The notes under the pieces are model-generated. The model saw nothing but the letters and a program-made list of their open reading frames with translations. It ran no database searches and was not told the DNA's origin. 64,000 bases of DNA from a virus: positions 64,001 through 128,000 of the IMG/VR virus record IMGVR_UViG_3300033802_000463; one strand, 5' to 3'. Of the stretch, positions 42,214 to 60,633 are shown piece after piece (position 1 is the stretch's first letter; every line of letters begins with the position of its first letter). The translations under genes and the position numbers were made by a program.

Positions 42214-42219
42214 CTATGA

Positions 42220-42308: not shown

Positions 42309-42309
42309 A

Positions 42310-42398
42310 TGGCGGATGGAGAGGGATTCGAACCCCCGTAGACTTTCGCCCTAACGGTTTTCAAGACCGCCCCGTTATGACCACTTCGGTATCCATCC
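42310..42398 (-). tRNA. tRNA-Ser(TGA)
   Basis: Long variable arm, CT-TGA-AA loop, GCCA end. Confidence 0.92.
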
Positions 42399-42401
42399 GA
42401 A

Positions 42402-42474
42402 TGCTGCCGAGAGGAATCGAACCTCCAACCTGCTGATTACAAGTCAGCTGCTCTGCCTGTTGAGCTACAGCAGC
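42402..42474 (-). tRNA. tRNA-Thr(TGT)
   Basis: CT-TGT-AA loop; CCA not encoded. Confidence 0.9.
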
Positions 42475-42480
42475 AGATTA

Positions 42481-42556
42481 TGGCGGAACCGACGGGATTT
42501 GAACCCGCGATCTCCTGCGTGACAGGCAGGTATGCTAACCGCTGCACCACGGTTCC
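42481..42556 (-). tRNA. tRNA-Asp(GTC)
   Basis: CT-GTC-AC loop, GCCA end. Confidence 0.92.
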
Positions 42557-42566
42557 GAATGAAGAA

Positions 42567-42639
42567 TGGATCCTGCAGGACTTGAACCTACAACCAACCG
42601 GTTATGAGCCGGCTGCTCTACCAGTTAAGCTAAGGATCC
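42567..42639 (-). tRNA. tRNA(CAT), probably Ile2 rather than Met
   Basis: CT-CAT-AA loop; body resembles Bacillus-type Ile2; lacks initiator features; CCA not encoded. Confidence 0.8.
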
Positions 42640-42640
42640 A

Positions 42641-42716
42641 TGGCTCCCCGAACAGGACTCGAACCTGTGACCCGCAGATTAACAGTCCGCTGCTCTACCG
42701 ACTGAGCTATCAGGGA
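42641..42716 (-). tRNA. tRNA-Asn(GTT)
   Basis: CT-GTT-AA loop, GCCA end. Confidence 0.92.
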
Positions 42717-42717
42717 A

Positions 42718-42792
42718 TGGCACCGGCTCAGGGATTCGAACCCCGACTGACGGTTTTGGAGACCGCTGTTCTGCCAATTAAACTAATCCGAT
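42718..42792 (-). tRNA. tRNA-Trp(CCA)
   Basis: CT-CCA-AA loop, GCCA end, one acceptor-stem mismatch. Confidence 0.85.
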
Positions 42793-42802
42793 TTGATGAA
42801 AA

Positions 42803-42888
42803 TGGGAAAGGAGAGATTCGAACTCCCTGCGTTTCTAATGTGCCGGATTTACAGTCCGGTGCCACTCCGCCATTGTGACCGCTTTCCC
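42803..42888 (-). tRNA. tRNA-Tyr(GTA)
   Basis: CT-GTA-AA loop, long variable arm; CCA not encoded. Confidence 0.85.
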
Positions 42889-45572: not shown

Positions 45573-45602
45573 ATTGTAATGCATTACATTACACTTTGAC
45601 AA
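45573..45602 (-). promoter_or_regulatory. Leftward sigmaA-like promoter overlapped by TGTAATGCATTACA
   Basis: TTGTCA-18-TACAAT on the minus strand; palindrome at 45575-45588. Confidence 0.55.
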
Positions 45603-45720
45603 GACAGAAAAAACCCTATATAGCCCCAAATTTTTATAAAAAAATTTTGGGCCAAGCCTCTTCATTTGACACTCTGGAAAAAACCCCATATAGGGCCATT
45701 TTTATAAAAAAAAATTGCGC
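45595..45720 (+). repeat. Imperfect 70-bp-period tandem duplication at the strand switch
   Basis: Two copies of TTTGACA-N17-TATAG-GC-rich-TTTTTATAAAAAAA(A)TT. Confidence 0.7.
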
Positions 45721-45809
45721 GTGGTAGTAGGTTTCCTTGAGTTGGGTATGGGCGGCGTTCGGAGCCCCACCCACCTCTAATACCAAATACGATGAAAGGA
45801 TGATTTCGC

Positions 45810-45992
45810 ATGGCACAACAAAAACAAAGACTGAAACTGATCATGGAGTATCTGAAGGAGAACGGGAAAGCTGTTCGATTTGGTGACCTGATGAGACAAG
45901 GATTCTATTCCTTTGTCATCAAGATGGTGGCTGAAGAAGTGGGAGCAAAGCTTGATTATGACGATCAAGGGTACAGCATCATCGCCTTCTGA
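45810..45992 (+). CDS. Small hypothetical protein (first gene of right arm)
   Basis: RBS AAAGGA; 60 aa. Confidence 0.6.
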   Translation: MAQQKQRLKLIMEYLKENGKAVRFGDLMRQGFYSFVIKMVAEEVGAKLDYDDQGYSIIAF

Positions 45993-46008
45993 TGATGCTC
46001 CCTCTCTT

Positions 46009-46063
46009 GCCTGCACCGTGCTGGCCTCCCCGTGGCGCAGGTGGATACCCAACCAACAGCACG
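46009..46063 (+). ncRNA. Minimal HDV-like (theta-type architecture) self-cleaving ribozyme
   Basis: P1 GCCUGC/GCAGGU with G1-U wobble; J1/2 AC; P2 CGUGCUG/CAGCACG; P3 GCC/GGC; L3 UCCCCGU; GG for P1.1; J4/2 CCAA. Confidence 0.85.
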
Positions 46064-46164
46064 ATTGGCACGCTGATGACAGTATGCGTGTTCAATTAAA
46101 ACCTGTCACACCAATCAGGGTTGGCAGTGATCCCGCAAAACTGACCATAAGAAAGGAGTTTAAC

Positions 46165-46698
46165 ATGAAAAACGCAGCAGCAAACATCAAATTCGGTTAT
46201 GAGCTGAAGAACGCCCTGGGCAAGATTGTGGTTATGCCAAGGGCACACAAGGCAATGGTAATCGGCAAGTCTGTAAGCAAGGGCAAGATGGTTTTCGATG
46301 CAGTTGTGACCTATGGTGGCAAGGCTCTGAACGCCGTATGGAAAGGCATCAAGTGGACCGGACGCATGCTCTGGAGGAATCGTGCAGCGATTACCATTGG
46401 TGCAGTGTCGGCTATTGCAGCCGGCGCCATGACGAGTAGCATGACAGGTGCAGTCATGGCAGCTTCAGCAATTGCTCCCGCAGCGATGATGGCATGGGAT
46501 TCGATTATTGCATCGATCCGGGAACGCAAGATGCAATTCCGCTTGAATCTGAGGAGGATGTTGAATGCATCCATTGCGGGATCCATGTTCCCTTGCTTGT
46601 TTATCTATGGCTTCTTTGGCCTGGCGCTTGCTTTGGATTATGCCTTCTATGCTGCACTGGATGGGCTGTTCTATAGCCTGGTGCTGTTCTACCTGTAA
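46165..46698 (+). CDS. Membrane protein
   Basis: RBS AAAGGAG; several hydrophobic helices. Confidence 0.7.
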   Translation: MKNAAANIKFGYELKNALGKIVVMPRAHKAMVIGKSVSKGKMVFDAVVTYGGKALNAVWKGIKWTGRMLWRNRAAITIGAVSAIAAGAMTSSMTGAVMAASAIAPAAMMAWDSIIASIRERKMQFRLNLRRMLNASIAGSMFPCLFIYGFFGLALALDYAFYAALDGLFYSLVLFYL

Positions 46699-46975
46699 TT
46701 AGGTAGACAGTACAGGTGATGATGCATATGCCTGACGTGATGACGACGGATGAAGGCATGGTGTAGGCGTCACCAGGCGCGGCGCAGGCATGCGCGCCCT
46801 ATAAATACATGGCTGTTGGATTGATGCCTCCATTACCGGCATCCGCAGTGATGACAAGCGCATTGTTATCCGTATTGGCCACTCGTCATGATGGCCCGCA
46901 GTAGCGCCGGCGATATAGGTGCTCTTTGTCGTTTAGTGGGAATCACCCGCCGGCATCGTACCCGTCATTTGCAGA

Positions 46976-47003
46976 GGTTTCATCCTCTTGGCGGGACTCA
47001 TGC
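46976..47003. repeat. Left arm of 28-nt long-range inverted repeat
   Basis: GGTTTCATCCTCTTGGCGGGACTCATGC; 27/28 reverse complement of 51320-51347. Confidence 0.9.
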
Positions 47004-47108
47004 TTGATCACTTGCAGTATATAAGCTGCTTTTTCTAATTTTCTATTTTTCTGCTTTTATATCAATTTTCAAGATCAACAAATTCACATAAAAGGAGAAT
47101 GATTCACT

Positions 47109-50100
47109 ATGCAACAAAATCAAATCAACAAGTTCATGTCTGCAGCTGATGTTCTTGGTGCTTTGGCTTCCTTCCCGGGCATCCGTGAAGGCGGCAAGAA
47201 CTTTGATCTCGTAACCAGTGCTATGACGGAGGGGAACAATATCTTGAACATTCTGCGTGACCCGGTTGGTATTGCAGGGATTGCGCCTCAGCAAGCGCAT
47301 CATTTCGCTCGCTTTGTTGAAACCTACAAGGATCAGCTTCCAGAACGCTTGATGCCGAAGAAGCGGGATTCCATCCAAATCCTGATTGCAGACATCAACT
47401 TCATGAAGCGAGATGAAGATGGATGGATGGTGTCCACATTTAAGTACAATGATCCAACGAAAGACAACGGATTTGACTTCAAGAGTGAGAATCAAATGGC
47501 TGATGTATTTGCATCGGAGCCGGTTATTCTGCAAATTCGCCGCAAGTTTAACAAAGGCGAGATGGTTGTAGAGAAGCGTGCTCGTCTGATGCATGACATT
47601 GTAACGGTCAACATGAACTGGGTCCTGGAGGAAGGCCAATCCGAGCCGACCGCCGAGCAGCTGGCCATCCAAGCGGAGCTGATGGAAAAAGGCTTCAAGA
47701 TCATGATGAATGGTGAAGCTAAGTATTGCAAAATGATTCAGCAAACCAACAGCCAGGCACGCCAAGTTATGGCCAATTTCTTGGTTTGCGACAATGAGTT
47801 TGATGCTGTTCCTGAGTTCTTCATGAAGCTGGGACACAACCTTGTTGCTTATGGAAAGAAGAATGCAGATGGAACCATTACGATTGATTGCACCAAATAT
47901 ATGAGCCGTATTGGTCTGTCTGGAACCAGCTCCATCCTCTGCCGCGCCATTCAAATCGGAGATCAGATTCAAGAGAATGGAGATGGCAGCTATTCCATCC
48001 TGGGTGGCAATATGACGATGCGTGTTCAGCCGGATGTGCATGTCATGGTTCGCATCGGCAAATATAAAGTCATCAATGCACAAACCAAAGAGTTTGAAGT
48101 CTTCGATGCTTCCGAACATCCGGTAAAGATGGTGGCTGGCGATGGCCTGATCTTTGTAAACAAGCGTATGTATAAGGCACTCGTTGCTGAACATGGCGTT
48201 AATGTCGATGCTTGGCAAGTTCGGATTACGCCGTTTGGCAAAGGGCTGGCTGTCTATGTCCCTGGCCTGGAGAAAACATTCGAGGAAGATATTGTGGCAT
48301 TTAGCTCCGCCATCAAAGGTGACTTCCGCGATGTTGTAGGCGTACACAAGATCCAATTCCGTGTCGCACTTTTCAATAAGCCGGCCAAGAAGATTAAGAA
48401 GTATACGGAGTATCCGTATCAATTTGTCCATGGAACCAGCCTGACTGCTGAAGATATGATGAATCTGGTAAAACCTCATATGGAGAAAGTCAAGGCAATG
48501 CTTGAAGATCCGGAGCTTCTGATGGATTATCTTGGCATGGATCGTCTGGAAGGTGCATCCGACGAAGAACTGGACAAGGCACTGGTGACAACGTTGATGA
48601 CATTCCTGCATGAGGCGCCGTTCACTTACAAGGATGTCCAAATGAAGAAGTATGCAATGCAACACATTATGGACATGATCAAGAACTGGGTTGTCGGTTC
48701 GATCCCTGTTGAAGCCAATTACAAGTTCATGGTTCATGATCCGCTGGCCATCCTGGAGACGCTGCGCTTGGATCGCTTGCTCCCAGGCAAGCTGCGTGAT
48801 GAAGATGGCGATCTTGTTATTCCTCCGAATGTGGGCTTGCCTGCAGGTACGGTTGTCGTTCGTGATATGAATGACGAGTATCTTGAAGGTGAAATTGGCA
48901 TGCAGCGCAATCCGTTGATTGCCAAGAGTGAATCTGCGGTTGCTGTGGCTATGAAAGATCCGAAATATGTTCGTGTCGGCCATTTCCGTAATCTTTGCGT
49001 CATGAGCGTTCATGACTTCAATACCGCAAAGCAAGGTGGAGCCGACAATGACGGTGACAAAACACTGGTTATTAAGGATCCTGTGATCATCAATGCCATC
49101 AAGCGCAATGCTCACCTTCCTGCCCTGCTGGATATTCATGTGGTTGAATATGTGGATGGTCAACCGGTATTCGATAGCGGCTGCCCGAAATCCTGGAGCG
49201 CGAAGCCAGAGAATGTGTATTCCATTCCCGCTCCCATGATTGTTAAGCAAGACGGCTTCAAAGTGACATTCGCTAAGGATCAGTATAATGAAACGCTCAT
49301 TAATGAGCTTCATAAACTAACCAAGGATTACATCACTCGCACACTGAAGCCGAACCAAATCGGCTTGTTGACCAATTATGCCACGAAGCTTGCAGATGCC
49401 GTGCGTTCACTTGGTTATCAATACAAGCTTGGCGTAGACAAGGATGGTCTGCCGCTTTCTCAGAAAGATAAGCAAGACATTCTGAATAAGATCAAACAAT
49501 TCGAAGAATGGATTGATCTTCTCCGCCTGTGCCAAGGATGGGAGATTGACGCCGCGAAGCATGGCGGTGCATTCTGGGAGGCGCTTGAGAATGAGCTGAG
49601 CTTCATCAAGAATCCGCCGGAGGAAGTTGGATACGTTAGCGAGAAGACCAGCAGGACTGTATGGTATACGCCGGACTGGATGGCTGAGCGCAATAACAAA
49701 GAATTTGGTGTATACACCGGTTCGGTTCTTTCCCGCTTGTTTGTCGATATGGTGAAAGAACGCGCTGACATCTCGAAGTTTGTTGATGAAATGGACAAGC
49801 GTTCTGAAGGAGCCAACATTTACGGTGAGCTGAATGCAGCGATTTCCATGTCTCCGGAACGTTATGAAATGATCAAGGCACATGTGGTAGACATCGATCG
49901 TGAGTATCGCATGGGTATGCAGAACCTTATCAAGAAAGAATCCGAAGCAATAGATCGCGCGGTCGCTCTGGCTGAAGGCAACAAGCACAAGCTGGAGTAT
50001 CTCATGGAAATGGTTCATACCAAGATGAAAGAGGAACGAGCTTTGCTCATTGAGTCCTGCGCCGCGCAGCTGGAGAAGCTGGAAGATGTATTTGCGCCGG

Positions 50101-50540
50101 AAGAGATCGGATTCGTGGCTTACAAGCTCACTTATATTGACTCCAAGTCTGAATCCACTTCTTTCCCGTGGACCGTAGCTAAGCGTCAGTTCCTGGCAAC
50201 TTGCCAAGTTGCGGCCGGCAAAAATCCATCCCGTCTGCCGAAGATCGCAACACGCAAGGCCGACGCGGAGATTAACCTGATGCTGGTGAATCCGAAGCAT
50301 GCAGAGTTGATCGATCGGGCAACGCGCAATGGTTATATGGACGTGAAGTTGGTGCAAGATCAATTAACCGGCAATCTGGTGTATGCCGTTGGCGTCGAGA
50401 ATGTCCTGCTTGGCTATGTATACAACAAGTCGGCCATTTGGTTCTCTGGCGCAGCGCAAGCTCGTGTATATTTCTCTGAACATCGCTACATGTCTCAGAA
50501 GTCGGCTGCAATCAGAGCAACCACTATCAATCTTGCTTAA
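47109..50540 (+). CDS. Single-chain two-barrel RNA polymerase, YonO/eukaryotic-RdRP family
   Basis: GDGLIFV...AWQVRITPFGKG, QRNPLI, catalytic GGADNDGDK, IGLLTN, EIDAAKHG; RBS AAAGGAG. Confidence 0.85.
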   Translation: MQQNQINKFMSAADVLGALASFPGIREGGKNFDLVTSAMTEGNNILNILRDPVGIAGIAPQQAHHFARFVETYKDQLPERLMPKKRDSIQILIADINFMKRDEDGWMVSTFKYNDPTKDNGFDFKSENQMADVFASEPVILQIRRKFNKGEMVVEKRARLMHDIVTVNMNWVLEEGQSEPTAEQLAIQAELMEKGFKIMMNGEAKYCKMIQQTNSQARQVMANFLVCDNEFDAVPEFFMKLGHNLVAYGKKNADGTITIDCTKYMSRIGLSGTSSILCRAIQIGDQIQENGDGSYSILGGNMTMRVQPDVHVMVRIGKYKVINAQTKEFEVFDASEHPVKMVAGDGLIFVNKRMYKALVAEHGVNVDAWQVRITPFGKGLAVYVPGLEKTFEEDIVAFSSAIKGDFRDVVGVHKIQFRVALFNKPAKKIKKYTEYPYQFVHGTSLTAEDMMNLVKPHMEKVKAMLEDPELLMDYLGMDRLEGASDEELDKALVTTLMTFLHEAPFTYKDVQMKKYAMQHIMDMIKNWVVGSIPVEANYKFMVHDPLAILETLRLDRLLPGKLRDEDGDLVIPPNVGLPAGTVVVRDMNDEYLEGEIGMQRNPLIAKSESAVAVAMKDPKYVRVGHFRNLCVMSVHDFNTAKQGGADNDGDKTLVIKDPVIINAIKRNAHLPALLDIHVVEYVDGQPVFDSGCPKSWSAKPENVYSIPAPMIVKQDGFKVTFAKDQYNETLINELHKLTKDYITRTLKPNQIGLLTNYATKLADAVRSLGYQYKLGVDKDGLPLSQKDKQDILNKIKQFEEWIDLLRLCQGWEIDAAKHGGAFWEALENELSFIKNPPEEVGYVSEKTSRTVWYTPDWMAERNNKEFGVYTGSVLSRLFVDMVKERADISKFVDEMDKRSEGANIYGELNAAISMSPERYEMIKAHVVDIDREYRMGMQNLIKKESEAIDRAVALAEGNKHKLEYLMEMVHTKMKEERALLIESCAAQLEKLEDVFAPEEIGFVAYKLTYIDSKSESTSFPWTVAKRQFLATCQVAAGKNPSRLPKIATRKADAEINLMLVNPKHAELIDRATRNGYMDVKLVQDQLTGNLVYAVGVENVLLGYVYNKSAIWFSGAAQARVYFSEHRYMSQKSAAIRATTINLA

Positions 50541-50545
50541 TGCAT

Positions 50546-50574
50546 GAAGGGGAGAGTGACAAGCTCTCCCCTTC
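50546..50574 (+). terminator. Hairpin after the RNAP gene (weak U-tract)
   Basis: GAAGGGGAGAG/CTCTCCCCTTC. Confidence 0.45.
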
Positions 50575-50607
50575 TCTATATTCATTATTCATTTAGGAGG
50601 AATCAAT

Positions 50608-51252
50608 ATGGCAACTTTGTACAATCGTGTGGCAGCATGGATCAATCCCAAGCATATCAAGGTCCGCCGGGATGGCAATACGGTATACATCAATATTGCA
50701 GGAAAGGAACACACCATAACATTCTACAATCTTCAAGAGCCGGTGGAGTTGGAAGTCTCCGCCCATGTCGTAGAGTTTGTGAATGTATCCTATTTCCGCC
50801 GCACAGGAAAGCGTATTGAGAGATCCTATTATTCGACGGTGATTGCATTTGAAAATAAACTTAACGAGGATCACCGCATTTCCCCTTACAAGTTGTGCGA
50901 GTTTCGCACTGATATCCAAGACGCATTGAACGCATTAAAGTCGCTTGCCGATCTTCCGATGCCGACTGATAAACAACTTCAGCTTCTTGTTTATCAAGCA
51001 TTGATTCAAGCTTGCAAAGAGAGCAAGTACAAGACAGCTACTTATACTCAATGGGAAAGCACATGGTTTAATCTGCTTGATCAATTCGATATGGTTTACT
51101 TGCCGCGAGACATTTTCAAAACATTAGCTGCAAAGTATCTTGAAGCCGGTTATGCAGATGCTATTGAACGAAATGGTCAGTATGGATCATTTAATGTCTT
51201 CAAGCCATCCCAAAAAGGATTGACTCGTTGGAATCAGCATACAGGTCAATGA
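50608..51252 (+). CDS. Hypothetical protein enclosed with RNAP by the inverted repeat
   Basis: RBS AGGAGG; 214 aa. Confidence 0.75.
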   Translation: MATLYNRVAAWINPKHIKVRRDGNTVYINIAGKEHTITFYNLQEPVELEVSAHVVEFVNVSYFRRTGKRIERSYYSTVIAFENKLNEDHRISPYKLCEFRTDIQDALNALKSLADLPMPTDKQLQLLVYQALIQACKESKYKTATYTQWESTWFNLLDQFDMVYLPRDIFKTLAAKYLEAGYADAIERNGQYGSFNVFKPSQKGLTRWNQHTGQ

Positions 51253-51319
51253 GGCCCTTCGGGCACGGGTGCGGCGGTCATAACTGCAGCTGCCGCACCA
51301 CTGCAACATCGTGACACTT

Positions 51320-51347
51320 GCATGAGTCCCGCCAAGAGCATGAAACC
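51320..51347. repeat. Right arm of 28-nt long-range inverted repeat
   Basis: GCATGAGTCCCGCCAAGAGCATGAAACC. Confidence 0.9.
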
Positions 51348-51813
51348 CAGCCACTGCATATTTGATCCTCTTTATCTCTCCATGACTTCTCCTCTATTTC
51401 TCTCCCCTCTTTCCTCATGATGCTCATCATGCTCATATATCCAATTATGCGAATCATCTCTCCTCTGCCCCATCAACATCAAACCTGAGGTATTTCAGCA
51501 TTATTCTTGCTCCCCTAACCATCTGCTCCCGGAACGGGGTTTTGTAAGCTCCTCCTCCCTCCTCACACTGTTCTTTCACATCATAATAGCTTCTCTTCGC
51601 TGGAAATTTTCTCCCTAAGTTATACCTTCGGCATGATGCTATTCTTATTTATGTTTCATGCATGTGTAATGCGTTACGAATCTCTCCCGTGCTTTATTTG
51701 ATGCTTATAAGTATCAATGTTGCTTGGTTTCGTTCGTGCTATTAGGATGACTAGAGGTGCGCCTGACGGCGCGCTTCACTGCAGATAAATTTTTCTTTCA
51801 AGGAGGAACTACG

Positions 51814-52254
51814 ATGAAAGAAGTTACGATTTACACTGACGGCGCCTGCTCCGGCAATCCTGGTCCTGGAGGCTGGGGAGCCGTTCTAACATATAAAGAC
51901 AAGCAAAAGACGGCTTTTGGCTACGAGCCGCATACGACAAACAATCGTATGGAGCTTGTAGCCGTTATTGAGTCGTTGAAGCTTTTGAACCAACCCTGCC
52001 ACGTCCAAGTGTATAGCGATTCAGCCTACTTGGTGAATTGCTTCAACAACAATTGGATCGAGGGTTGGCAAAAGAACGGCTGGAGAACCAGCAAAAATCA
52101 ACCGGTGGAAAACCGGGAATTGTGGGAGGCGTTGCTTGAACTAATGAAGATTCATCAAGTTGAATACTTCAAAGTCAAGGGGCACTCCCACGTTACATTA
52201 AACGAAATGGCTGATCGGTTAGCGCGTGAAGCCATTAAACGACATCGTTCTTGA
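51814..52254 (+). CDS. rnhA: Ribonuclease HI (copy 1)
   Basis: YTDGACSGNPGPGGWG, NNRMEL, SDSAY, KGH...NEMAD. Confidence 0.92.
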   Translation: MKEVTIYTDGACSGNPGPGGWGAVLTYKDKQKTAFGYEPHTTNNRMELVAVIESLKLLNQPCHVQVYSDSAYLVNCFNNNWIEGWQKNGWRTSKNQPVENRELWEALLELMKIHQVEYFKVKGHSHVTLNEMADRLAREAIKRHRS

Positions 52255-52293
52255 TTTTACTGGCGGCATGTTTTTGCCGCCAGTGTGTGTTTA

Positions 52294-52350
52294 TCTCTGT
52301 CTGCAGAGTAACAGCTGCACTGATGAGTCTTATTGGAGACGAAATAGAGA
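52294..52350 (+). ncRNA. Type III hammerhead ribozyme
   Basis: UCUCUGUC^UGCAG-loop-CUGCA CUGAUGA GUCUU-AUUG-GAGAC GAAA UAGAGA; GUC cleavage predicted after 52301. Confidence 0.9.
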
Positions 52351-52372
52351 ATCTATCATGGAGGCAATGCGA

Positions 52373-52835
52373 ATGGCTGATCCGTCTATTTTTTTCTTAT
52401 CAGAGATTGATTCTGCGAGTTTATATACTCGTGAAAATATTAAACGTGTAAAGGAGATGTTTGTTGAAGGGCTAAAAGCAGATGTAGAATCAAACCATAT
52501 TGATCGTCAATTGGCGAATAAATGGTTTCGTATGATGATTCAGAATAAGATGGCTTTCGCCATTGCCCTTGGGTCCGACTTTAAGGGTTTCCGTGTTGCT
52601 AAGAGCAAGTCAGATTTTCATCCTTATACGGAGAATCTGGCAATATGGCCCAGACAGCTTTTTTTATGATCGTTTGTCTAATTACGATCTTATTTACCAA
52701 GAAGTATATTCATGGAGAGGTGATAAGTTTAAGAGTGACACATTATACTTTATGTCTCGTAAGTTGAGGTTAGATGTTGGTTTGATAGGATCCCCTCGGA
52801 CGATGGTCCGGCCGCCTATTCAATTTGAAGACTGA
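52373..52835 (+). pseudogene. Hypothetical gene apparently frameshifted at a T7 run (52659-52665)
   Basis: RBS GGAGG. Removing one T joins ...WPRQLF to YDRLSNYDL..., which ends at the terminator. Confidence 0.4.
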
Positions 52836-52870
52836 GGAGATATGATTCTTTTATCTCCTCTTTTTTATTT
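52834..52870 (+). terminator. Intrinsic terminator
   Basis: GAGGAGATA/TATCTCCTC followed by TTTTTT. Confidence 0.75.
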
Positions 52871-53025
52871 TCCTTCTCCTGTCCCGCTTCCACTTCACCT
52901 CCATTGAATGATGTTACTTTTTTATGTTCGACGTAAAAGATCATGCCAGGAGCGGCTGACGCCGCATTTCCATCACAGATGTAGGCGAAACTTCTACATC
53001 AATCTTAGTCGTGGAGGTATTGCTT

Positions 53026-53202
53026 ATGGTGGAGCAAGAGATCATGGAAATCATTCCAAGAGGAAACATGAAGCAATCGCAATATGATCTGCTTGTGAAA
53101 CTGATAGGGATCTACTATCGTGCAAATGGATTAATGCTTCACATTGTTCCTGCTCCTGATACACGTAACAAGAAATTGCGATTGATACGTGGGGATAAAT
53201 GA
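53026..53202 (+). CDS. Small hypothetical protein
   Basis: RBS GGAGGT before ATG 53026. Confidence 0.55.
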   Translation: MVEQEIMEIIPRGNMKQSQYDLLVKLIGIYYRANGLMLHIVPAPDTRNKKLRLIRGDK

Positions 53203-53262
53203 TGCATGAATGCCTGACGGCATAATTCATTATCCAGCGTTGATTCACAAGGAGATGATATT

Positions 53263-53493
53263 GTGGAGTTGATCGATCCATGTCGTCGTCTTCATCTGCT
53301 TCGGCCAGGCAACCTGGTTGTAATTCAAGGCACTGTCATTGGCTGTTTAGGTGCGGAAGGAAAAATTGGTGTGATTACCGATGAGCCTAATCAGTCTGGA
53401 TTATTGTCTCATAAGCCCGGTGTGAATGTAAAGCTTGATGCAGGCTTCGTATGGCTTGTCAACAAAGATGCTGTAAAACCTTTTGGCAAGTGA
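53263..53493 (+). CDS. Small SH3-like hypothetical protein
   Basis: RBS AAGGAG; GNLVVI...GKIGVI...VNVKL. Confidence 0.5.
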   Translation: MELIDPCRRLHLLRPGNLVVIQGTVIGCLGAEGKIGVITDEPNQSGLLSHKPGVNVKLDAGFVWLVNKDAVKPFGK

Positions 53494-53517
53494 ATATTGA
53501 GGAAGGATGTGCATGGA

Positions 53518-53952
53518 ATGAAATATGAGATCTATCAGATCAAGGATGAGTATCGCAGGCAATATGGTTTTGCAAACTTGGATATATTGCCGATGAGATA
53601 TAGAGAGGATACGGATCATCCTGTATTGATTTCAAATGGTGTTGTTCCTGTTCTAAATATCGATGCTTATAACAAGGTGTATGAGGGTGATACTGCATCT
53701 ATTGGTGGTATTGATCGTTTTGTTATTAACGATCCGGCCAACCCGATGCATAAGCAGCAAATGAGGTTGCTTGAGCATATGTTTGAAGTGTTTAATCTTT
53801 ATCATCCTTCGGATTATCGCGCCCCCTCTATGAGTGTAGGCGATCTTGTTGTATTGTATCCGTATGATGATAGTAACAGGGAAGCATTCTTTTGCGACAG
53901 CTTTTCCTGGAAACCAATTGAGTTAATGTCCCGCTCCGGGTCATGGAGTTGA
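53518..53952 (+). CDS. YodL-like domain protein
   Basis: YEIYQI...YNKVYEG...FEVFNLYHPSDY...SMSVGDLVVL...FFCDSF. Confidence 0.75.
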   Translation: MKYEIYQIKDEYRRQYGFANLDILPMRYREDTDHPVLISNGVVPVLNIDAYNKVYEGDTASIGGIDRFVINDPANPMHKQQMRLLEHMFEVFNLYHPSDYRAPSMSVGDLVVLYPYDDSNREAFFCDSFSWKPIELMSRSGSWS

Positions 53953-53957
53953 TCATT

Positions 53958-54137
53958 ATGTACAAAGCAACAATTTATTATCGATCGGGTCATACGGCGA
54001 CTATTCGTTGTGACTCTATTTCTCTTGCACGTATGTATCTGTTTGGCCGTGGTGTGGATCATATTGTAATGGCCATGCCCGGCCGCCCCTCTCTCCCTCC
54101 TATTATCCTTCGTCATTCATCCGATTCATGCGGCTGA
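53958..54137 (+). CDS. Small hypothetical protein
   Basis: RBS GGAG; its stop codon is the loop of a hairpin motif copy. Confidence 0.4.
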   Translation: MYKATIYYRSGHTATIRCDSISLARMYLFGRGVDHIVMAMPGRPSLPPIILRHSSDSCG

Positions 54138-54384
54138 TGCCGCTTTTCATTTTGATGTGCTATAATACTGCTTGCATGAGGAGGATACAGAATGTTTAAA
54201 AAGAAACCAACGCTTAATAACGCATGACTGGCAGCCGGTTGATTCCCAAGGCTATGGGATGGAATGCTCCAATTGCGGCAAATACATCTCTGCATTTGAG
54301 CCGGACGCTTGGAAGGCCGGCCAGGAGTCGCTTTGCATCCCGACGGCACGACTACAGAAGAGAAAATACGGAGGTGATATTCAG

Positions 54385-54582
54385 ATGACAAAACCGGAAG
54401 GCGCATATTATTTTGACCAAGAATCAGGACTGTGGGTTACGGATGGAAAGCATGACAAACAGCATTATTTTTGGTATTTGGAACATAGGCTAGGTTTTTC
54501 GCAAGAAGCAATATCTGCCATGAGCGATGAAGATCATTTCAATATGGCAGATATGTACGCGGCTGATTATTTATCATTTTGA
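54385..54582 (+). CDS. Small hypothetical protein
   Basis: RBS GGAGGTG; MTKPEGAYYF... Confidence 0.55.
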   Translation: MTKPEGAYYFDQESGLWVTDGKHDKQHYFWYLEHRLGFSQEAISAMSDEDHFNMADMYAADYLSF

Positions 54583-54600
54583 TGCTTTTGGGCTGATTCC

Positions 54601-54894
54601 ATGCAGTGTTCCGTTTGTCGGAATAAAATTCAGTGTCCTTATACTTCGCTGCGCGGCAAGCTCTTTTGCATGTTTTTCACCAATAAAAATAAAGAGCTTG
54701 TCGCTCGCGGCGTCGTTGACTTCATGTTCATGGTTATGTATGATCAGCTGCCTTCGGATATTCAGAAACGCGTGCAAAAAATCATCGAAGGCAAGATTTC
54801 TCGTTTCGGCGTCTCCTTTGAGGAGATCGTGCAACAATATGCCGATATCGAAAAGACGTACCAGGAGTGGCTATTCAGAGAAAAATATGCTTGA
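54601..54894 (+). CDS. Hypothetical protein
   Basis: 97-aa ORF in the operon. Confidence 0.55.
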   Translation: MQCSVCRNKIQCPYTSLRGKLFCMFFTNKNKELVARGVVDFMFMVMYDQLPSDIQKRVQKIIEGKISRFGVSFEEIVQQYADIEKTYQEWLFREKYA

Positions 54895-54959
54895 TAAGCC
54901 TGTCGGCTTGATTTCTGTAAATGGTTAATGCACACAACATTTAAGGAGGCATATGGTCT

Positions 54960-55400
54960 ATGCATGCAAGATTCAATGCAAAATTCACATGCTGCCCGGA
55001 ATGTTCTAACGTATGGCTTTTACCCGCGTTTGTGAAAGATTCCGATGTTCGATGGAAACTGTGCCCCAAATGCCGCGCAAGAAAGCGTGCGTTTTATGCG
55101 GTATTTTGGGGGAAGTATGTAAAAGCCATGCAAAATGGTGATTTAACCGAAGACGGTCTTATGGTTGCTCGCATCGATGGTGAGCATTACGTTATTGGTC
55201 CTGAAAATACTGTCGGCTTCCGAGGCTTCAGCGGACGCCGCTTTGTCATTCGGTTTACGGTTGGCCCGCATGCCGGCGAGATTGTGGAGACTACGAATCT
55301 GTGGCATCAAGGCACGATCTCACATGGATACGAGAAGATCCTGCATGACAATGCAGTGTTTGTGCCGCAAGAGTATCCTTCGTTGATCTCGGTATCATAG
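54960..55400 (+). CDS. Zn-ribbon hypothetical protein
   Basis: RBS AAGGAGG; CPEC...CPKC; TTNLWHQG. Confidence 0.65.
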   Translation: MHARFNAKFTCCPECSNVWLLPAFVKDSDVRWKLCPKCRARKRAFYAVFWGKYVKAMQNGDLTEDGLMVARIDGEHYVIGPENTVGFRGFSGRRFVIRFTVGPHAGEIVETTNLWHQGTISHGYEKILHDNAVFVPQEYPSLISVS

Positions 55401-55426
55401 CATTTTCAAGCGGCTTACAATGCCGC

Positions 55427-55481
55427 TGCTGTCGTAGGGTTGTGCCCTGCCTGATGATGGCTTCTCTAAGCCGAAACAGCA
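55427..55481 (+). ncRNA. Type III hammerhead ribozyme (extra U after A9)
   Basis: UGCUGUC^GUAGGG-UUGUG-CCCUGC CUGAUGA U GGCUU-CUCU-AAGCC GAAA CAGCA; cleavage predicted after 55433. Confidence 0.88.
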
Positions 55482-55511
55482 AAACGATTATACTATGTGG
55501 AGGTTGATAAA

Positions 55512-55733
55512 ATGCCTTATCAGCATACTTTGGAAGATCGCATTTACATCCTGCAGAAAACCAATCTTCCGGATGATCTTTCCTATATGCTTCAACAGGC
55601 AGATCAGTATTATGTTCAATATCTGGACAAACAAGCTGAAGAGTTGGTTGCTCAAATTGAAAAAGAGTGTGTCGCAAGGAATATCAAATTGTTTAAGCCG
55701 CTTAATTGTTTTGCGGAGCTCATTTACACATAA
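55512..55733 (+). CDS. Small hypothetical protein
   Basis: RBS GGAGGT just downstream of the hammerhead. Confidence 0.6.
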   Translation: MPYQHTLEDRIYILQKTNLPDDLSYMLQQADQYYVQYLDKQAEELVAQIEKECVARNIKLFKPLNCFAELIYT

Positions 55734-55816
55734 TTTTTGTTGAGCATTACAACATGATCTTTTTTTATACATAACAATGAATACCGTAAATATTTCGTTT
55801 GAAAGGATGATTAATT

Positions 55817-55990
55817 GTGCTTCAACGGTTTTTCATTCGTCCGTCTGGATCGGAATTTGCAATTATCGCGGTTGTCGGCGGCGTGGAGACGGAGGTCGAG
55901 CGCGGCGCAAAGGCGCTTATTCGAGGCAAGTTTTTGCATTACGTGAAGAATCGATCGGCACTTATTGAGAAAATTGGTGATCTGGCATGA
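55817..55990 (+). CDS. 57-aa hypothetical protein
   Basis: Hand-translated from GTG after AAAGGA; ATGA overlap with the next gene. Confidence 0.5.
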   Translation: MLQRFFIRPSGSEFAIIAVVGGVETEVERGAKALIRGKFLHYVKNRSALIEKIGDLA

Positions 55991-56160
55991 GGCGTCATCT
56001 TGCTTTTTGGATTGCCGTCGGCCTGTTGCTTCTCTTTACCATCCGCATCTGGCTTCCAGTTCTGATTGGATTGGCGCTTGCTATCATCGCCATTTGCTTT
56101 GTGGTCAAAGTATTTGCAGACGGTTATGATTTATGGAGGACTCTTTCTCGCAAGCGGTGA
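55987..56160 (+). CDS. 57-aa membrane peptide
   Basis: Hand-translated MRRHLAFWIAVGLLLLFTIRIWLPVLIGLALAIIAICFVV... Confidence 0.55.
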   Translation: MRRHLAFWIAVGLLLLFTIRIWLPVLIGLALAIIAICFVVKVFADGYDLWRTLSRKR

Positions 56161-56587
56161 CGCTTGCTTCTTGCCCTCCCCCGGGATCAGACCATTGCAT
56201 CCTATTGGGGCCACCCTGGCCCCCCTTTAAGAGGGCATACTTCCCCCAAAGGTATGAAGGTGCATGTTTTGGAACAATCAGCGATTCTTGATTGACTGTC
56301 ATGCTGCTTTTGCCGTATAGTGAGAAATGCTTCATGGCATCTATCAAGATTCTTTTTAGCGCTGTTCATTTTCCATTTTTGGAATCTTGTTCCATGTTTA
56401 TTCGTGCCATTTCTCACTTGCTTGCTGCATGATTAAAAATGCACCTATAAATTATACATAGCGGAAAACCTGGGGTATTTTAACCCCAGTTATTTCCATC
56501 TGGTATATTTCACAAAATTGTCACATTTTGTTCGCATTTTTTATCTATTATGGCTGACGCCATGTTTCCTTTTGGGGTGAGTTTTCC

Positions 56588-57109
56588 ATGTATGTAATAC
56601 AGTATCGTGATCACGCATCATTCGGTGAACTCCGCGTCGATCAAGTTCAGACTGAATCAGAATTGTACGGATTCTTTCGAGAAGATGGCGGCGCTATCGA
56701 TGTTATTCATTATTGGGAGATCCCTGGTACTGCAAATTTGTTTCGCCTAATTGTTGCAGGCAGCCGCGATTTCAATGATTACCCTCTACTCTGCTCCAAG
56801 CTTGATTATTTGCTTCAGAGACAGCCGTATACAATCATCGTATCGGGCGCAGCTCGCGGAGCTGATTCGCTTGGAGAAAGGTATGCACGAGAACACGGTC
56901 TGCCGATTGATCAATATCCTGCAGATTGGGTCAATTTAGGGAAGCGTGCAGGATATGTTCGAAACGAACAAATGGCGAAAGTGGCGAATGCATGTGTTTG
57001 CTTTTGGGATGGAGTTTCCCCTGGCACAAAAAGTATGATCAAGCTTGCCCGCCAGTATAATTTGGATACGCGCGTGATCATATATAAAAACAATCTTATC
57101 ACAAATTAA
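56588..57109 (+). CDS. SLOG-superfamily (DUF2493/YspA-like) protein
   Basis: LIVAGSRDFNDY...IVSGAARGADSLGERYA...AGYVRNEQM...FWDGVSPGT. Confidence 0.8.
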   Translation: MYVIQYRDHASFGELRVDQVQTESELYGFFREDGGAIDVIHYWEIPGTANLFRLIVAGSRDFNDYPLLCSKLDYLLQRQPYTIIVSGAARGADSLGERYAREHGLPIDQYPADWVNLGKRAGYVRNEQMAKVANACVCFWDGVSPGTKSMIKLARQYNLDTRVIIYKNNLITN

Positions 57110-57126
57110 TTTTTGGAGGCATTTGG

Positions 57127-57660
57127 ATGATACAAAACCCTTCCATGCAACGAGAAGATATTGAACGTTTTCTCTCTATTTGTCGTGAAAGTACGCCGGC
57201 TCTGCTTCAAGCAGCCGGCGTTTTTGTTGATTATTCAGAAGAATCGTTATCGCATTGCGAGGACTTTATCAATGCGATTTATCCGGTTGGACACATCCCG
57301 CATCCAACGACGGTCCTCCCTTTCGGCTATTACTTGGGAGAAACGATCATACGGAACATTCCAGATTCAAAGTGGGATGTTGATACACCAGCTGAAACGG
57401 TTTGGGATATTGGCGTCAAAATTGAAATACCTTTTGCAAGCGAAGACATGCCTCGAACACAAATCGTTCGGCCGTTTATGCGTGCTCAGAAGTTTTGGCG
57501 AGATCGATCGGATGGTCTTCGCGCCATGTACATACTTGTCAATCAATTGTCACTTGGATTTGTTGATCCCACGAAAGCCAAACCTGGCGAATGGATAGAA
57601 TTGCCTGTTGGCATCAAATTCCGTTACACAATTGCAATCAAGGAGGATTTAACAGAGTGA
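57127..57660 (+). CDS. Hypothetical protein (immunity-protein-like pattern)
   Basis: DYSEESL...FGYYLGETI...W; RBS GGAGG. Confidence 0.55.
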   Translation: MIQNPSMQREDIERFLSICRESTPALLQAAGVFVDYSEESLSHCEDFINAIYPVGHIPHPTTVLPFGYYLGETIIRNIPDSKWDVDTPAETVWDIGVKIEIPFASEDMPRTQIVRPFMRAQKFWRDRSDGLRAMYILVNQLSLGFVDPTKAKPGEWIELPVGIKFRYTIAIKEDLTE

Positions 57661-58097
57661 AAGAAGTAACGATCTATACAGATGGCGCATGCAGCGGCAA
57701 TCCTGGCCCAGGGGGCTGGGGTGCCGTTTTAATTTATGGAGAAATAACGGAGCAACTCAGTGGTTACGAACCGCATGCAACCAACAATCGCATGGAGCTG
57801 ATCGCAGTTATTGAATCACTAAAAGCGCTCAAAGAGCCTTGCCGCGTAAAAATCATCAGCGATTCGGCTTATGTCGTCAATTGCTTCAAACACAAATGGT
57901 ACGAATCCTGGATTGCAAAAGGCTGGAAAAACTCTCAAGGCAAGAAGGTCGAAAACCAGGAGCTTTGGGAGGAACTCCTGCATCTGATGACAATTCATCA
58001 GGTATTCTACCAAAAAACAAGAGGTCATGCTGATGATCAGTACAATAATCTAGCTGATCAGCTGGCTCGAAATGCAATTAAACAGCATGGTGCCTGA
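57657..58097 (+). CDS. rnhA: Ribonuclease HI (copy 2)
   Basis: All catalytic motifs present; GTG start after GGAGG. Confidence 0.92.
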   Translation: MKEVTIYTDGACSGNPGPGGWGAVLIYGEITEQLSGYEPHATNNRMELIAVIESLKALKEPCRVKIISDSAYVVNCFKHKWYESWIAKGWKNSQGKKVENQELWEELLHLMTIHQVFYQKTRGHADDQYNNLADQLARNAIKQHGA

Positions 58098-58172
58098 CGG
58101 CACAATTCGCTTCAGATTCCATCAGTTTTCATCAGATCACATCATATTCTATTCAAATTGGAGGTTTTTACC

Positions 58173-58361
58173 ATGAAACTCAGCTATTCCGTAAAAGATT
58201 TGCAAGTGAATATCCCGCTGCCAGAAGAGTTCACCGGTGCAGACGAACTTCTTTCCGTCAACATTCATATTGGCGAATTGAATTATTCTCTTGAAGATGT
58301 GACGGTTACTGATTTGGTCAGTGGCTTGAAGGAGATTATTTCCCTATTTCTTGACAAATAA
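58173..58361 (+). CDS. Small acidic protein
   Basis: RBS GGAGG. Confidence 0.55.
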   Translation: MKLSYSVKDLQVNIPLPEEFTGADELLSVNIHIGELNYSLEDVTVTDLVSGLKEIISLFLDK

Positions 58362-58419
58362 AAACTGGCCGCATTTTCCACTTCTTTGATTCATAACAAG
58401 GAGAGTAGAAGCCATAAAC

Positions 58420-58734
58420 TTGATTGATACAATTCTAAATCATGGGGTCGAGAACGTCTTCTTTCTCGCAAAGGCACGGCCGTTGAGGAAAGTCCTTTTT
58501 GTCTCCTACACATCTTCAAGCGATCCGGCAATTGAAATGATGTGCAAGATCGACACTAGCCGGTATAAGCTCGAAGACCAATACAAGATTACCATTGCTC
58601 CGATCTATGTAGGGTATGCTAAAGAAGATTACTATGTTACTGACTTGCAATCCATGCTGAATCGAGGATATGCCAAAATGTTGGTTCAGCTGCCTGTTGA
58701 GATACCGGCCAGGAAAACACTGCCGGTTATTTGA
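58420..58734 (+). CDS. Hypothetical protein
   Basis: RBS AAGGAG; 104 aa. Confidence 0.55.
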   Translation: MIDTILNHGVENVFFLAKARPLRKVLFVSYTSSSDPAIEMMCKIDTSRYKLEDQYKITIAPIYVGYAKEDYYVTDLQSMLNRGYAKMLVQLPVEIPARKTLPVI

Positions 58735-58835
58735 TTTTCATATTCCCTATTTTTCATAGAAAATATATTCTTATATGCTTATTATTGATGTTTATATATC
58801 ATATGTGTATTTGAATATATTTTCTAATGAACAAT

Positions 58836-58874
58836 GAAATAGGCGACATCCGAATCATGGGTGTCGCCTATTTC
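58836..58874. terminator. Hairpin between convergent genes
   Basis: GAAATAGGCGACATC/GGTGTCGCCTATTTC. Confidence 0.6.
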
Positions 58875-59710
58875 TTAATAAACCATCTTACGAAGAATGG
58901 AAGCGAGTTGATTATCTCCTGTTTCATTTCTTGCCTTAATTGTTTATCTTCCAGTCTTTGATTCAATTGTTCCATCAACACTCTGTCTCGGACTTCAACA
59001 TCTTGCCGCATGGTATTTACGGCATGATCGATGAGCTCCTTTTGCTTCTCATCTGAAGCCATGCTTTGCAAGGCGTTCATTGTTTCTGCTATTTTTTCTA
59101 TTTTTTCTTGCATCTCATCAATCCGGCTATCTCCTGGAAGCATAAGCATCTTCTCTTCCAATCGCTTATCGATGAGTGCGTTCATCCATTCCGTCAATTT
59201 TTGGATTTGTTCCTCGCTGGCTCCAGCGAACGGATCGGCCAGGTTCGTGTCGCGTCTTGGTTCGTCATCGTAGTCATCCCGATCAATGATGCGAAATGCA
59301 TCTGCCGAAACGATGCCAACCAGCTCCGCACAGCGCGACAGTTTGATGTTGTGGTGTTTTCGAAGCAGCAGCGCCATTTTGAGGCGAAAGACGGCTTGGT
59401 AGTCCATGATGACTGTGCGTCCACTCATCCGTGCCTCTATGTAATGGTTGAGCTGCTTTTGCCAGCTCCTCATGGTTGAAGGCTTGCAAAGGAAGTTGAT
59501 CGCCTGCTCATGGGTGCAGTACCACTCTTCAAAATCTGTAGTGGTATAGTCTGCCCCCTCTTTCAGGTTCTCGATGTAGTCGTCAAACAGATATTCAACA
59601 AGATCAAGCTTCACTATGAGCTTGAACAGTGGATCTTGCTTAAATTCTTGGCTCAATCGCTCACTCATGGGCATGCTAAGCGATGATGGTCGAATATGTT
59701 CATCCATCAA
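58868..59710 (-). CDS. MerR-like HTH plus coiled-coil protein (RacA/DUF3967-like architecture)
   Basis: AINFLCKPSTMRSWQKQL HTH; coiled coil; C-terminal amphipathic PFFVRWFIKK. Confidence 0.55.
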   Translation of the reverse strand: MMDEHIRPSSLSMPMSERLSQEFKQDPLFKLIVKLDLVEYLFDDYIENLKEGADYTTTDFEEWYCTHEQAINFLCKPSTMRSWQKQLNHYIEARMSGRTVIMDYQAVFRLKMALLLRKHHNIKLSRCAELVGIVSADAFRIIDRDDYDDEPRRDTNLADPFAGASEEQIQKLTEWMNALIDKRLEEKMLMLPGDSRIDEMQEKIEKIAETMNALQSMASDEKQKELIDHAVNTMRQDVEVRDRVLMEQLNQRLEDKQLRQEMKQEIINSLPFFVRWFIKK

Positions 59711-60556: not shown

Positions 60557-60633
60557 GCCTGACGACTCGCTTCATTTTAGAGAGTCGCAAATGCGGTTCT
60601 TTTTTGATTTCAAGAGAAAGGAGGTTGTTACGA

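Follow-up and report, generated by a model that had tools for sequence, protein, structure and literature searches.

Predicted self-cleaving ribozymes of two classes at gene junctions around a YonO-type RNA polymerase gene in a phage family, with a probable role in separating cistrons

Why should one stretch of phage DNA carry three self-cleaving ribozyme folds of two different classes, all between genes and all on the coding strand? The question is raised by a window of 64,000 nucleotides (nt), bases 64001-128000 of the 136,063-bp IMG/VR virus record IMGVR_UViG_3300033802_000463 (CheckV completeness 69%). According to a crude map of open reading frames (ORFs), a minus-strand block in this window is followed by a plus-strand block of ~22 kb, which starts at a divergent junction near 45.7 kb. 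The ribozyme region is the opening 10 kb of the plus-strand block and includes a gene for an RNA polymerase of the YonO/RdRP family; the divergent junction makes it plausible to call the ribozyme-bearing block an early region. An original prediction, made from the letters of the window, had described three intergenic folds, each behind a hairpin and ahead of a ribosome-binding site (RBS), and had proposed that they cut a read-through transcript into stabilised or circular units. All three folds were found where it had placed them. Our analysis suggests that these predicted ribozymes probably cut multi-gene transcripts of the plus block during synthesis and so separate the cistrons, whereas the circular units are unsupported. 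The three elements are as follows.

46009-46063, plus strand: minimal (P4-less) ribozyme resembling that of hepatitis delta virus (HDV-like), predicted cut 5' of G46009, candidate catalytic C46053
52294-52350, plus strand: type III hammerhead ribozyme (hammerhead 1), predicted cut after C52301
55427-55481, plus strand: type III hammerhead ribozyme (hammerhead 2), predicted cut after C55433

Three ribozyme folds between genes

In both hammerheads the canonical CUGAUGA...GAAA core and the GUC triplet are present, and none of the three helices is interrupted. Stems I, II and III comprise 5, 5 and 7 bp in hammerhead 1 and 7, 5 and 6 bp in hammerhead 2; they close the core with the pairs 1.1-2.1, 10.1-11.1 and 15.1-16.1, and stem III is open. 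The core of hammerhead 2 contains one extra U after A9, and such core insertions occur in active natural hammerheads. A self-written descriptor of the type III hammerhead, run on both strands of the whole record, matched exactly two sites, which are hammerheads 1 and 2. At least one match was present in 23 of 100 dinucleotide shuffles of the record and two or more in none, while 400 further shuffles gave 43 matches with a top stem sum of 15, as compared to 17 and 18 for the real sites. With the Rfam model Hammerhead_3, hammerhead 1 scores 38.0 bits, with an expectation value (E) of 2e-5 in a 10-kb scan and of 6.5e-8 in the whole record; hammerhead 2 scores 27.3 bits at 55426-55482 and was visible only in a 141-nt search.

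For comparison, 13 full-length relatives (L002-L014) were found in IMG/VR via an alignment of polymerase homologs. A search for related loci with the single polymerase protein as query returned no relative, and a scan of genome contigs gave distant partial polymerase matches only (23-34% identity). In the closest relative, L002, an ortholog of hammerhead 2 is located at 17917-17969 and is flanked by homologs of the same two genes. Between the two copies there are two double compensatory changes and one U.G to C-G change, and none of the 17 pairs is broken. To identify such pair changes, each fold was decomposed explicitly into its helices, as helix and loop lengths differ and the MAFFT alignments of the ribozymes were therefore out of structural register. 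A search of IMG/VR with the core and stem II of hammerhead 1 gave a single match, in an unrelated AT-rich phage with no genes in common. A 23-nt pair of segments, 51378-51400 and 52341-52363, is 78% complementary, a quality shared by many of the repeats listed, and its second arm spans the 3' strand of hammerhead 1, the RBS and the start of the next gene. This pair could be an alternative pairing that masks hammerhead 1, or it could be chance.

The HDV-like element folds into a nested double pseudoknot made up of helices P1, P1.1, P2 and P3, and cleavage is predicted 5' of the G1.U wobble. P1 has 6 bp including G1.U, junction J1/2 is AC, P2 has 7 bp, P3 has 3 bp and loop L3 is UCCCCGU; P1.1 pairs CC with GG, an unpaired linker of 8 nt stands in place of P4 and junction J4/2 is CCAA. 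A double-pseudoknot descriptor matched the record only at 46009-46063. Shuffled genomes yield a mean of 1.27 matches to this descriptor per genome (0.23 with P2 of at least 7 bp), and the match is not significant by itself. Despite the weak match alone, we accept the family membership of the element because of a comparative core search.

The pattern used for that search in IMG/VR consisted of P3-L3-P3' and the UGG which ends P1 and starts P1.1, and it leaves the linker, the junction and the 5' strand of both P1 and P2 unspecified. Out of at least 119 matching stretches, 80 were analysed, containing 81 sites. A complete P1 (6-7 bp), P2 (at least 5 bp) and C-N-R-A junction are present at 15 of the 81 listed sites, where 0.09 would be expected; random positions in the same loci pass in 263 of 240,000 cases, giving an enrichment of ~170-fold at the core sites. 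When the junction C is swapped for A, G or T, 4, 2 and 4 of the 81 listed sites pass, mostly the same true sites in another register, with two sites passing by the decoy alone. There are 11 distinct P1/P2 combinations among the 15 full folds listed. Since pairing within this set is 100% by selection, it is the enrichment and not the pairing percentage that speaks for the family. The linker AUAAMCAA, which is absent from the pattern, directly follows P1.1 at 5 of the 81 listed sites, all of them within the 15. At this position the window has AUACCCAA, and some other listed members have a P4 hairpin. A TTCGA tail resembling that of tRNA genes was seen at 26 of the 81 listed sites; some listed members abut tRNAs (in L108, directly after a tRNA-Asp) and others do not, and the listed members come from many unrelated phages. 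We therefore regard 46009-46063, a ribozyme predicted from its sequence, as a true member of the minimal HDV-like family, of the 'isolated' type. Assignment as a strict theta ribozyme, which cuts within +/-5 nt of a tRNA 3' end, was rejected, the nearest tRNAs being at 42139-42871 on the other strand.

Contigs from four DNA runs represent near-identical strains, among which the hammerheads show no informative variation. In one of the runs (X5), a single low-depth contig end has a 9-letter loose end at 46018 (46018-46024), which would shorten J1/2 and turn the first C-G pair of P2 into U.G. A second X5 contig matches only from 46024 on and has 187 unlike letters before that point. This variant may be a related element of another phage in the sample.

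Each of the three elements is preceded by a hairpin.

45975-45999, plus strand: 9-bp hairpin, -12.1 kcal/mol; the 40 nt upstream of the HDV-like element fold with z = -5.2
52258-52285, plus strand: GC-rich 11-bp hairpin with a weak T tail, terminator-like, -20.6 kcal/mol, z = -6.7
55410-55426, plus strand: 5-bp GC hairpin abutting hammerhead 2, -8.6 kcal/mol, not significant by itself

The first of these spans the stop codon of a 60-aa ORF and is separated by 9 nt from the HDV-like cleavage site, and the second ends 16 nt before the cut of hammerhead 1. At the position matching the third, L002 has a hairpin of different sequence. Taking the window, L002, L008 and L013 together, a hairpin ends 0-16 nt upstream of the type III or HDV-like element in all six cases. 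Type I and II hammerheads close the upstream fragment with the hairpin of their own stem III, and this is why a separate upstream hairpin is found only for elements that cut near their 5' edge. On the downstream side, RBS-like GGAGG or AAGGAG motifs lie 10, 18 and 87 nt 3' of hammerhead 1, hammerhead 2 and the HDV-like element, respectively.

The slot before the membrane-protein gene

Occurrence of such ribozymes in related phages had been put forward as a test of the original prediction, and hammerheads were indeed found beside the polymerase gene in 7 of the 13 relatives. There are eight credible hammerheads in these genomes (L002, L005, L006, L007, L013 and L014 with one each and L008 with two), all of which share the strand of the polymerase gene and occupy short gaps that separate ORFs. 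Whole-record scans with three Rfam hammerhead models covered 5 records per model (G000-G005 between them); besides hammerhead 1 of the window, every match above 20 bits adjoins the polymerase gene, including that in a 229-kb record rated 100% complete. Between the hammerheads of L007 and L014 there are three double changes, and none of the 20 pairs is broken. The hammerhead of L006 shows a U3/A8 core covariation, as reported for natural hammerheads (PMC3088659). Hammerhead-like descriptor matches in L009 (stem sum 13, spans of more than 140 nt, AT-rich) and weak ones in L038, L040 and L066 were discarded as spurious.

The comparison is most informative at the head of the plus block, where the following features are arranged in this order around the HDV-like element.

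45596-45692, plus strand: two tandem promoter-like boxes of ~70 nt (TTGACA ... CCYATATA ... T/A-rich) at the head of the plus block
45810-45992, plus strand: 60-aa ORF, first cistron of the plus block
46118-46158, plus strand: conserved leader of the membrane-protein gene, GGGTTGGCAGTGATCCC ... AAAACTG ... GAAAGGAG RBS, kept in L002, L008 and L013
46165-46698, plus strand: small membrane protein with two transmembrane segments, 177 aa, positional partner of the polymerase gene
47109-50540, plus strand: 1143-aa two-barrel RNA polymerase, YonO/RdRP family (Pfam PF05183)

A gene for a membrane protein with two transmembrane segments (ORFs of 161-215 aa that resemble one another in hydrophobic profile) directly precedes the polymerase gene in nine relatives (L002-L008, L013 and L014), while L009-L012 have a comparable gene at a greater distance upstream, separated from the polymerase gene by others. 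The slot before this gene is occupied by a type II hammerhead in L005, L006, L007 and L014 and by the HDV-like element in the window, and the same 60-aa ORF precedes the slot ribozyme in L005, L006 and the window. No ribozyme is present in the slot of L002, L004, L008 and L013, where promoter-like boxes directly precede the conserved leader. Thus, a ribozyme is found in 5 of 5 genomes with a cistron between boxes and leader and in 0 of 4 where the boxes abut the leader; L009-L012, with their different layout, are outside this rule. In L003, which has an upstream gene, the slot (6460-6570) contains no recognised ribozyme and consists of an irregular hairpin (-49.8 kcal/mol for 105 nt), which may be a functional substitute of the RNase III type. 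Presence of a ribozyme tracks the intervening cistron while its class varies; going by this slot rule, the selected function may be to supply the membrane-protein/polymerase leader with a clean 5' end, whatever the ribozyme class.

The box motif has no further copies in the record. The boxes are kept in L002, and in L004, L008 and L013 they stand immediately ahead of the membrane-protein leader. From their sequence and position they may act as promoters; a generic sigma-70 scan made no call at 45596-45692. Homologs of the 60-aa ORF were found by tblastn in L005, L006 and L011 (E = 1e-10 to 3e-8). Together with its hairpin and the HDV-like element, this ORF makes up a module of ~330 nt that is missing from L002.

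More distant phages with a partial polymerase match also carry well-formed ribozyme folds, located on the strand opposite to that match.

L037, 267-341, minus strand: HDV-like fold in which 24 nt separate P1.1 from J4/2
L058, 2499-2562 and 3230-3288, minus strand: two type I hammerheads
L047, 155-212, minus strand: type III hammerhead

A candidate for another structured RNA was noted in L009 and L012 (2320-2830, minus strand, beside a tRNA), where the ROOL RNA model RF03087 matches with 86.5 bits and E = 5.7e-16, under its gathering score of 99.1.

The polymerase gene, its flanking duplex and its neighbours

The polymerase matches the Pfam RdRP family PF05183 with 36.1 bits against a cut-off of 23.8, and the GGADxDGD motif (residues G643 G644 A645 D646 D648 G649 D650) is invariant across 12 polymerase homologs, which bears out the family assignment made originally. 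A search for solved structures with a sequence match to the polymerase family profile found none. The nearest homolog is 76% identical and has a name from Paenibacillus sp.; for this reason the host is probably a member of the Bacillales. DNA samples with the phage sequence come from phyllosphere, bioreactor and manure; a search for sequencing runs that contain it gave no RNA run. A megablast search of 45700-55800 against 50,697 phage records gave no match.

The polymerase gene is bracketed by two complementary arms, the second of which lies beyond a hairpin and a further ORF.

46976-47003, plus strand: upstream arm of the panhandle, 28 nt
50546-50574, plus strand: terminator-like 12-bp hairpin, just 3' of the polymerase stop codon
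50608-51252, plus strand: 214-aa ORF between the panhandle arms, no family match (Pfam, PHROG)
51320-51347, plus strand: downstream arm of the panhandle, complementary to 46976-47003 at 27 of 28 nt (96%)

This panhandle, which the original prediction had already noticed, scores 24.5 against a shuffle maximum of 13, and it recurs in relatives. Both arms lie tightly around the polymerase gene in L002, where, compared with the window, two pairs have changed on both sides in a compensatory manner, one G-C has become G.U and one mismatch is new. In L014, whose polymerase is 34% identical, a pair of 33 nt is arranged in the same way but is unrelated in sequence, and L004 has a perfect 17-nt pair. 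The inverted repeat is above all 30 shuffles in the window, L002, L014 and L004 and not in nine other loci; L012 has no downstream flank for this comparison. The panhandle would be a second, separate RNA-level signal, most likely a double-strand-specific (RNase III-type) stem for processing or protection. In L002 the 214-aa ORF is not between the arms, and it is skipped in a contig of run X5, where 50572 is joined to 51311. Located between the downstream arm and the hairpin 3' of the polymerase gene, the ORF is thus a facultative insertion. Upstream of the polymerase gene, the 411-nt gap 46699-47108 has no conserved ORF, contains the upstream arm and is ~73% identical in DNA to L002 within one long alignment; it may hold further RNA structure. 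The 177-aa membrane protein before this gap has no Pfam or PHROG match.

The genes adjoining the two hammerheads are the following.

51814-52254, plus strand: RNase HI gene (Pfam RNase_H, 161.8 bits)
52373-52669, plus strand: 98-aa ORF 3' of hammerhead 1, with GGAGG at 52360-52364
54960-55400, plus strand: 146-aa ORF 5' of hammerhead 2, with a 57% identical homolog at L002 17451-17870
55512-55733, plus strand: 73-aa ORF 3' of hammerhead 2, with GGAGG at 55499-55503 and a homolog at L002 18020-18193

Pfam and PHROG scans gave no family match for the 98-aa ORF. A second RNase HI paralog is present in the same gene block at 57591-58097; the Pfam scan covered the copy at 51814-52254.

A short repeated mini-hairpin is spread over the genes that follow the polymerase. 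It has a 5-bp stem and a TGAC loop, with TTC 2-3 nt later, and occurs within 51759-61572 and, outside the window, at record position 132945. The plus strand has nine perfect copies and three with one mismatch, and the minus strand has two with one mismatch. All nine perfect copies follow the polymerase gene; most of them precede a start codon by 40-55 nt, and the stems covary. L002 has six covarying TGAC mini-hairpins 3' of its polymerase gene (11828-19153), and L014 has four with TGTC or TGAT loops. The mini-hairpin might serve as a promoter for the phage polymerase, or else as a terminator or a signal for RNA processing.

On the minus strand, the window contains an array of eight tRNAs (42139-42871) and a group I intron (35880-36130; 92 bits in Rfam, above its gathering score). 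These nine were the only calls when the whole window was scanned at Rfam gathering thresholds, and no self-cleaving ribozyme was among them. Minus-strand tRNA arrays a few kb upstream of the polymerase gene are also present in L002, L003, L004 and L009-L012, and this arrangement is a conserved synteny.

Probable cistron separation, its rivals and known systems

From the folds, family membership, positions and comparative pattern described above, we infer cleavage in vivo, co-transcription of the flanking genes, an effect on RNA stability and a role for RNase III. A transcript running through a gene junction would be cut by the ribozyme, leaving a few bases between a stable hairpin and the 3' end of the upstream RNA. 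The RNA downstream would open with the folded ribozyme, paired from its first nucleotide, shortly before the next RBS. Neighbouring cistrons would thereby obtain their own end structures, stability and translation context. Where a gene separates promoter and leader, the slot ribozyme would re-create the fresh 5' end of the conserved leader, and the 28-bp duplex around the polymerase gene would be open to RNase III-type processing or would serve as a protection stem. RNase III is described as acting in the processing of rRNA and of polycistronic mRNA (PMC3328962). YonO is described as highly processive, with little pausing and without the domains for hairpin-dependent pausing or termination, and as transcribing the late genes of SPbeta as a single operon (PMC5467207). 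Given such processivity, post-transcriptional cutting would be a reasonable companion of this polymerase type.

Several observations weigh against this explanation. Both hammerheads are under the Rfam gathering score of 48.5 bits, as are the type III hammerheads of the relatives (42.7-44.2 bits), and at 46006-46074 the Rfam matches are weak (HDV_ribozyme 15.3 bits, gathering 50; drz-agam-1 13.5 bits, gathering 37), these two models including P4 and being unable to score pseudoknots. No ribozyme was found by descriptors or by Rfam at E <= 0.5 in 6 of the 13 relatives (L003, L004, L009-L012); the Rfam scan is weak evidence of absence because it also missed the L002 hammerhead. No ortholog of hammerhead 1 was found, L002 included, and with the HDV-like element absent as well this closest relative lacks two of the three ribozymes, which are therefore dispensable. 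The slot rule is drawn from nine related phages and not from independent events, and homology of the membrane proteins is judged from architecture and position (BLASTP of the window protein against that of L014 gives E = 1.2). The TGAC mini-hairpins may be internal promoters or processing sites, which leaves read-through across the ribozymes an inferred step. Finally, a 5'-OH end can promote decay by RNase J1 in a Firmicute, and the cut might then destabilise the downstream RNA.

The first of these points leads to the possibility that one or more elements are chance matches or decayed relics that do not cleave. To the low Rfam scores and the frequency of HDV-type descriptor matches in shuffled genomes one may add the inserted core nucleotide of hammerhead 2 and the stem II of only 3 bp in the L005 copy. 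However, shuffles never attain the quality of the hammerheads, covariation is seen in hammerhead 2 and in the type II set, and full HDV-like folds are strongly enriched at sites sharing the core; we hold inactive look-alikes to be very improbable. Alternatively, the ribozymes might be passengers that hitch-hike with gene cassettes (morons) and mark recombination joints with no benefit to the phage. The ~330-nt module at the slot is a single indel relative to L002, the 214-aa ORF is another, the genes between the polymerase gene and the 146-aa ORF are wholly different in the two phages, and HDV-like family members are scattered over unrelated phages. But compensatory changes keep the helices intact between diverged relatives, two ribozyme classes fill the same slot, and all elements are sense and intergenic. 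Passenger status, which we consider unlikely, also overlaps with cistron separation, because a ribozyme that insulates an insertion would let that insertion persist. It is quite unlikely, too, that the elements are decay triggers, exposing 5'-OH ends to RNase J1 of the host and so lowering or time-limiting downstream expression. The original prediction had counted 5'-OH ends as protective, yet the 5'-OH product of the B. subtilis glmS ribozyme is reported to be degraded by RNase J1 (PMC3328962), and the host here is probably one of the Bacillales. In Firmicutes, any protection must therefore come from a paired 5' end. Each of the three elements has its first nucleotide paired after the predicted cut (as G1 in P1 or as position 1.1 in stem I), leaving no single-stranded 5' tail, and such an end would be expected to resist RNase J1. 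Constitutive self-destruction is also hard to reconcile with downstream genes that include the phage polymerase with its conserved leader.

RtcB-type ligases join a 2',3'-cyclic phosphate to a 5'-OH, and the original prediction had raised the idea that units of 6.3 kb (46009-52301) and 3.1 kb (52302-55433) are ligated in this way into circular, exonuclease-proof mRNAs. The polymerase unit, looped by the panhandle, would be sealed by a host ligase as a circular or pseudo-circular translatable mRNA, and the phage would gain an exonuclease-proof message for its own polymerase. The predicted cuts would leave both of these ends (PMC8782182), and the distances of the panhandle arms to the two ends of the first unit, 967 and 954 nt, are roughly symmetrical. 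Against this, the units end in an HDV-like element and hammerhead 1, or in hammerheads 1 and 2, which have stem III strands that do not complement each other; religation by the ribozymes is impossible because each unit is bounded by two unlike ribozymes. The 69%-complete record has no RtcB, Rnl-type or LigT-type gene. A weak match to T4-type RNA ligase 1 (Rnl1, 15.5 bits) was rejected, as it sits in a DnaB-type helicase. B. subtilis and Lactococcus lactis were not among the control genomes with RtcB. TGAC mini-hairpins fall inside the units, one in the first and four in the second, and therefore the units are unlikely to be simple uninterrupted RNAs. Perreault et al. report that circular products were sought in comparable arrangements and none was found (PMC3088659). 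Both ligation of the units and a sealed polymerase message thus appear most improbable. Cutting of a multi-gene transcript is the best-supported part of the original proposal, backed by ribozymes of varying class at the same junctions of relatives.

The original prediction knew of no phage system of this kind, but several of its parts are in print. In prophage operons, genes flanked by several hammerheads have been described by Perreault et al. 2011 (PMC3088659), who suggest that long phage transcripts are processed into shorter mRNAs and report cleavage in vitro for three arrangements and a search for circular or spliced products that found none. As in those prophages, ribozymes on one strand flank single genes or short blocks here and include core variants such as U3/A8. 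In contrast to what that paper describes, one of the three elements is HDV-like, the class at the slot varies between relatives, and the elements are tied to a YonO-type polymerase gene across a phage family, with a long-range duplex; while the published arrangements cleaved in vitro, the present ones are known from sequence. Minimal P4-less HDV-like ribozymes of Caudoviricetes have been described by Kienbeck et al. 2024 (PMC10879173), including 526 'isolated' ones that are not tRNA-linked, are mostly intergenic and sense, and are given there as of unknown function. By eye, the layout in the window is nearly that of drz-Mtgn-1 in the same paper, with a 6-bp P1 including G.U, a 3-bp P3, a 7-nt L3 U-Y-C-C-C-G-U, a short linker and a C-N-A-A junction. 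Unlike theta ribozymes, the present element is not beside a tRNA, and whereas more than 80% of those are reported from gut phages, with ~90% of predicted hosts in Bacteroidota (PMC10879173), the samples here are phyllosphere, bioreactor and manure.

The polymerase shares with YonO of SPbeta (Forrest et al. 2017, PMC5467207) the family PF05183, a GGADxDGD-type motif, phage encoding and a Bacillales setting; unlike YonO as described in that paper, it is accompanied by ribozymes and a flanking duplex. A full-text literature search for 'YonO' together with 'ribozyme' returned nothing on the subject, judged by title or abstract. Like glmS of Bacillus (PMC3328962), the elements would place a ribozyme in the 5' leader of a Firmicute mRNA and a 5'-OH on the coding fragment. 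As described there, glmS depends on a metabolite, and RNase J1 decay follows its cut, whereas the present elements have no known ligand and a paired 5' end. According to a 2019 review, bacterial ribozymes of different classes often lie close together, their roles are 'largely elusive', and processing of polycistronic transcripts by ribozymes needs more work. Neither the ribozymes nor the idea of ribozyme-punctuated phage operons is new; the link with a polymerase family, the swap of class at the slot and the presence/absence rule were not found in print in the searches made.

With a hammerhead, an HDV-like element or nothing at one junction, this phage family offers a natural comparison on the function of bacterial and phage ribozymes. 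Its comparative pattern makes that function directly testable and links ribozyme processing to phages with a highly processive YonO-type polymerase. L002 is a provirus, and the match of its polymerase is to a protein with an NCBI name from a Paenibacillus strain, so there may be a system that can be cultured.

Two further comparisons concern the proposed roles. Long-range RNase III stems surround rRNA genes and occur in polycistronic mRNAs of T7. The panhandle is likewise a duplex, of 28-33 bp, with arms several kb apart, and it brackets one gene; unlike those stems it is known from sequence, and it might serve as a protective closure or exert its effect in the DNA. RiboJ is an engineered insulator ribozyme which is placed before an RBS and removes upstream RNA context. 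If they cut as predicted, the elements in the window would be a natural counterpart of such synthetic insulators.

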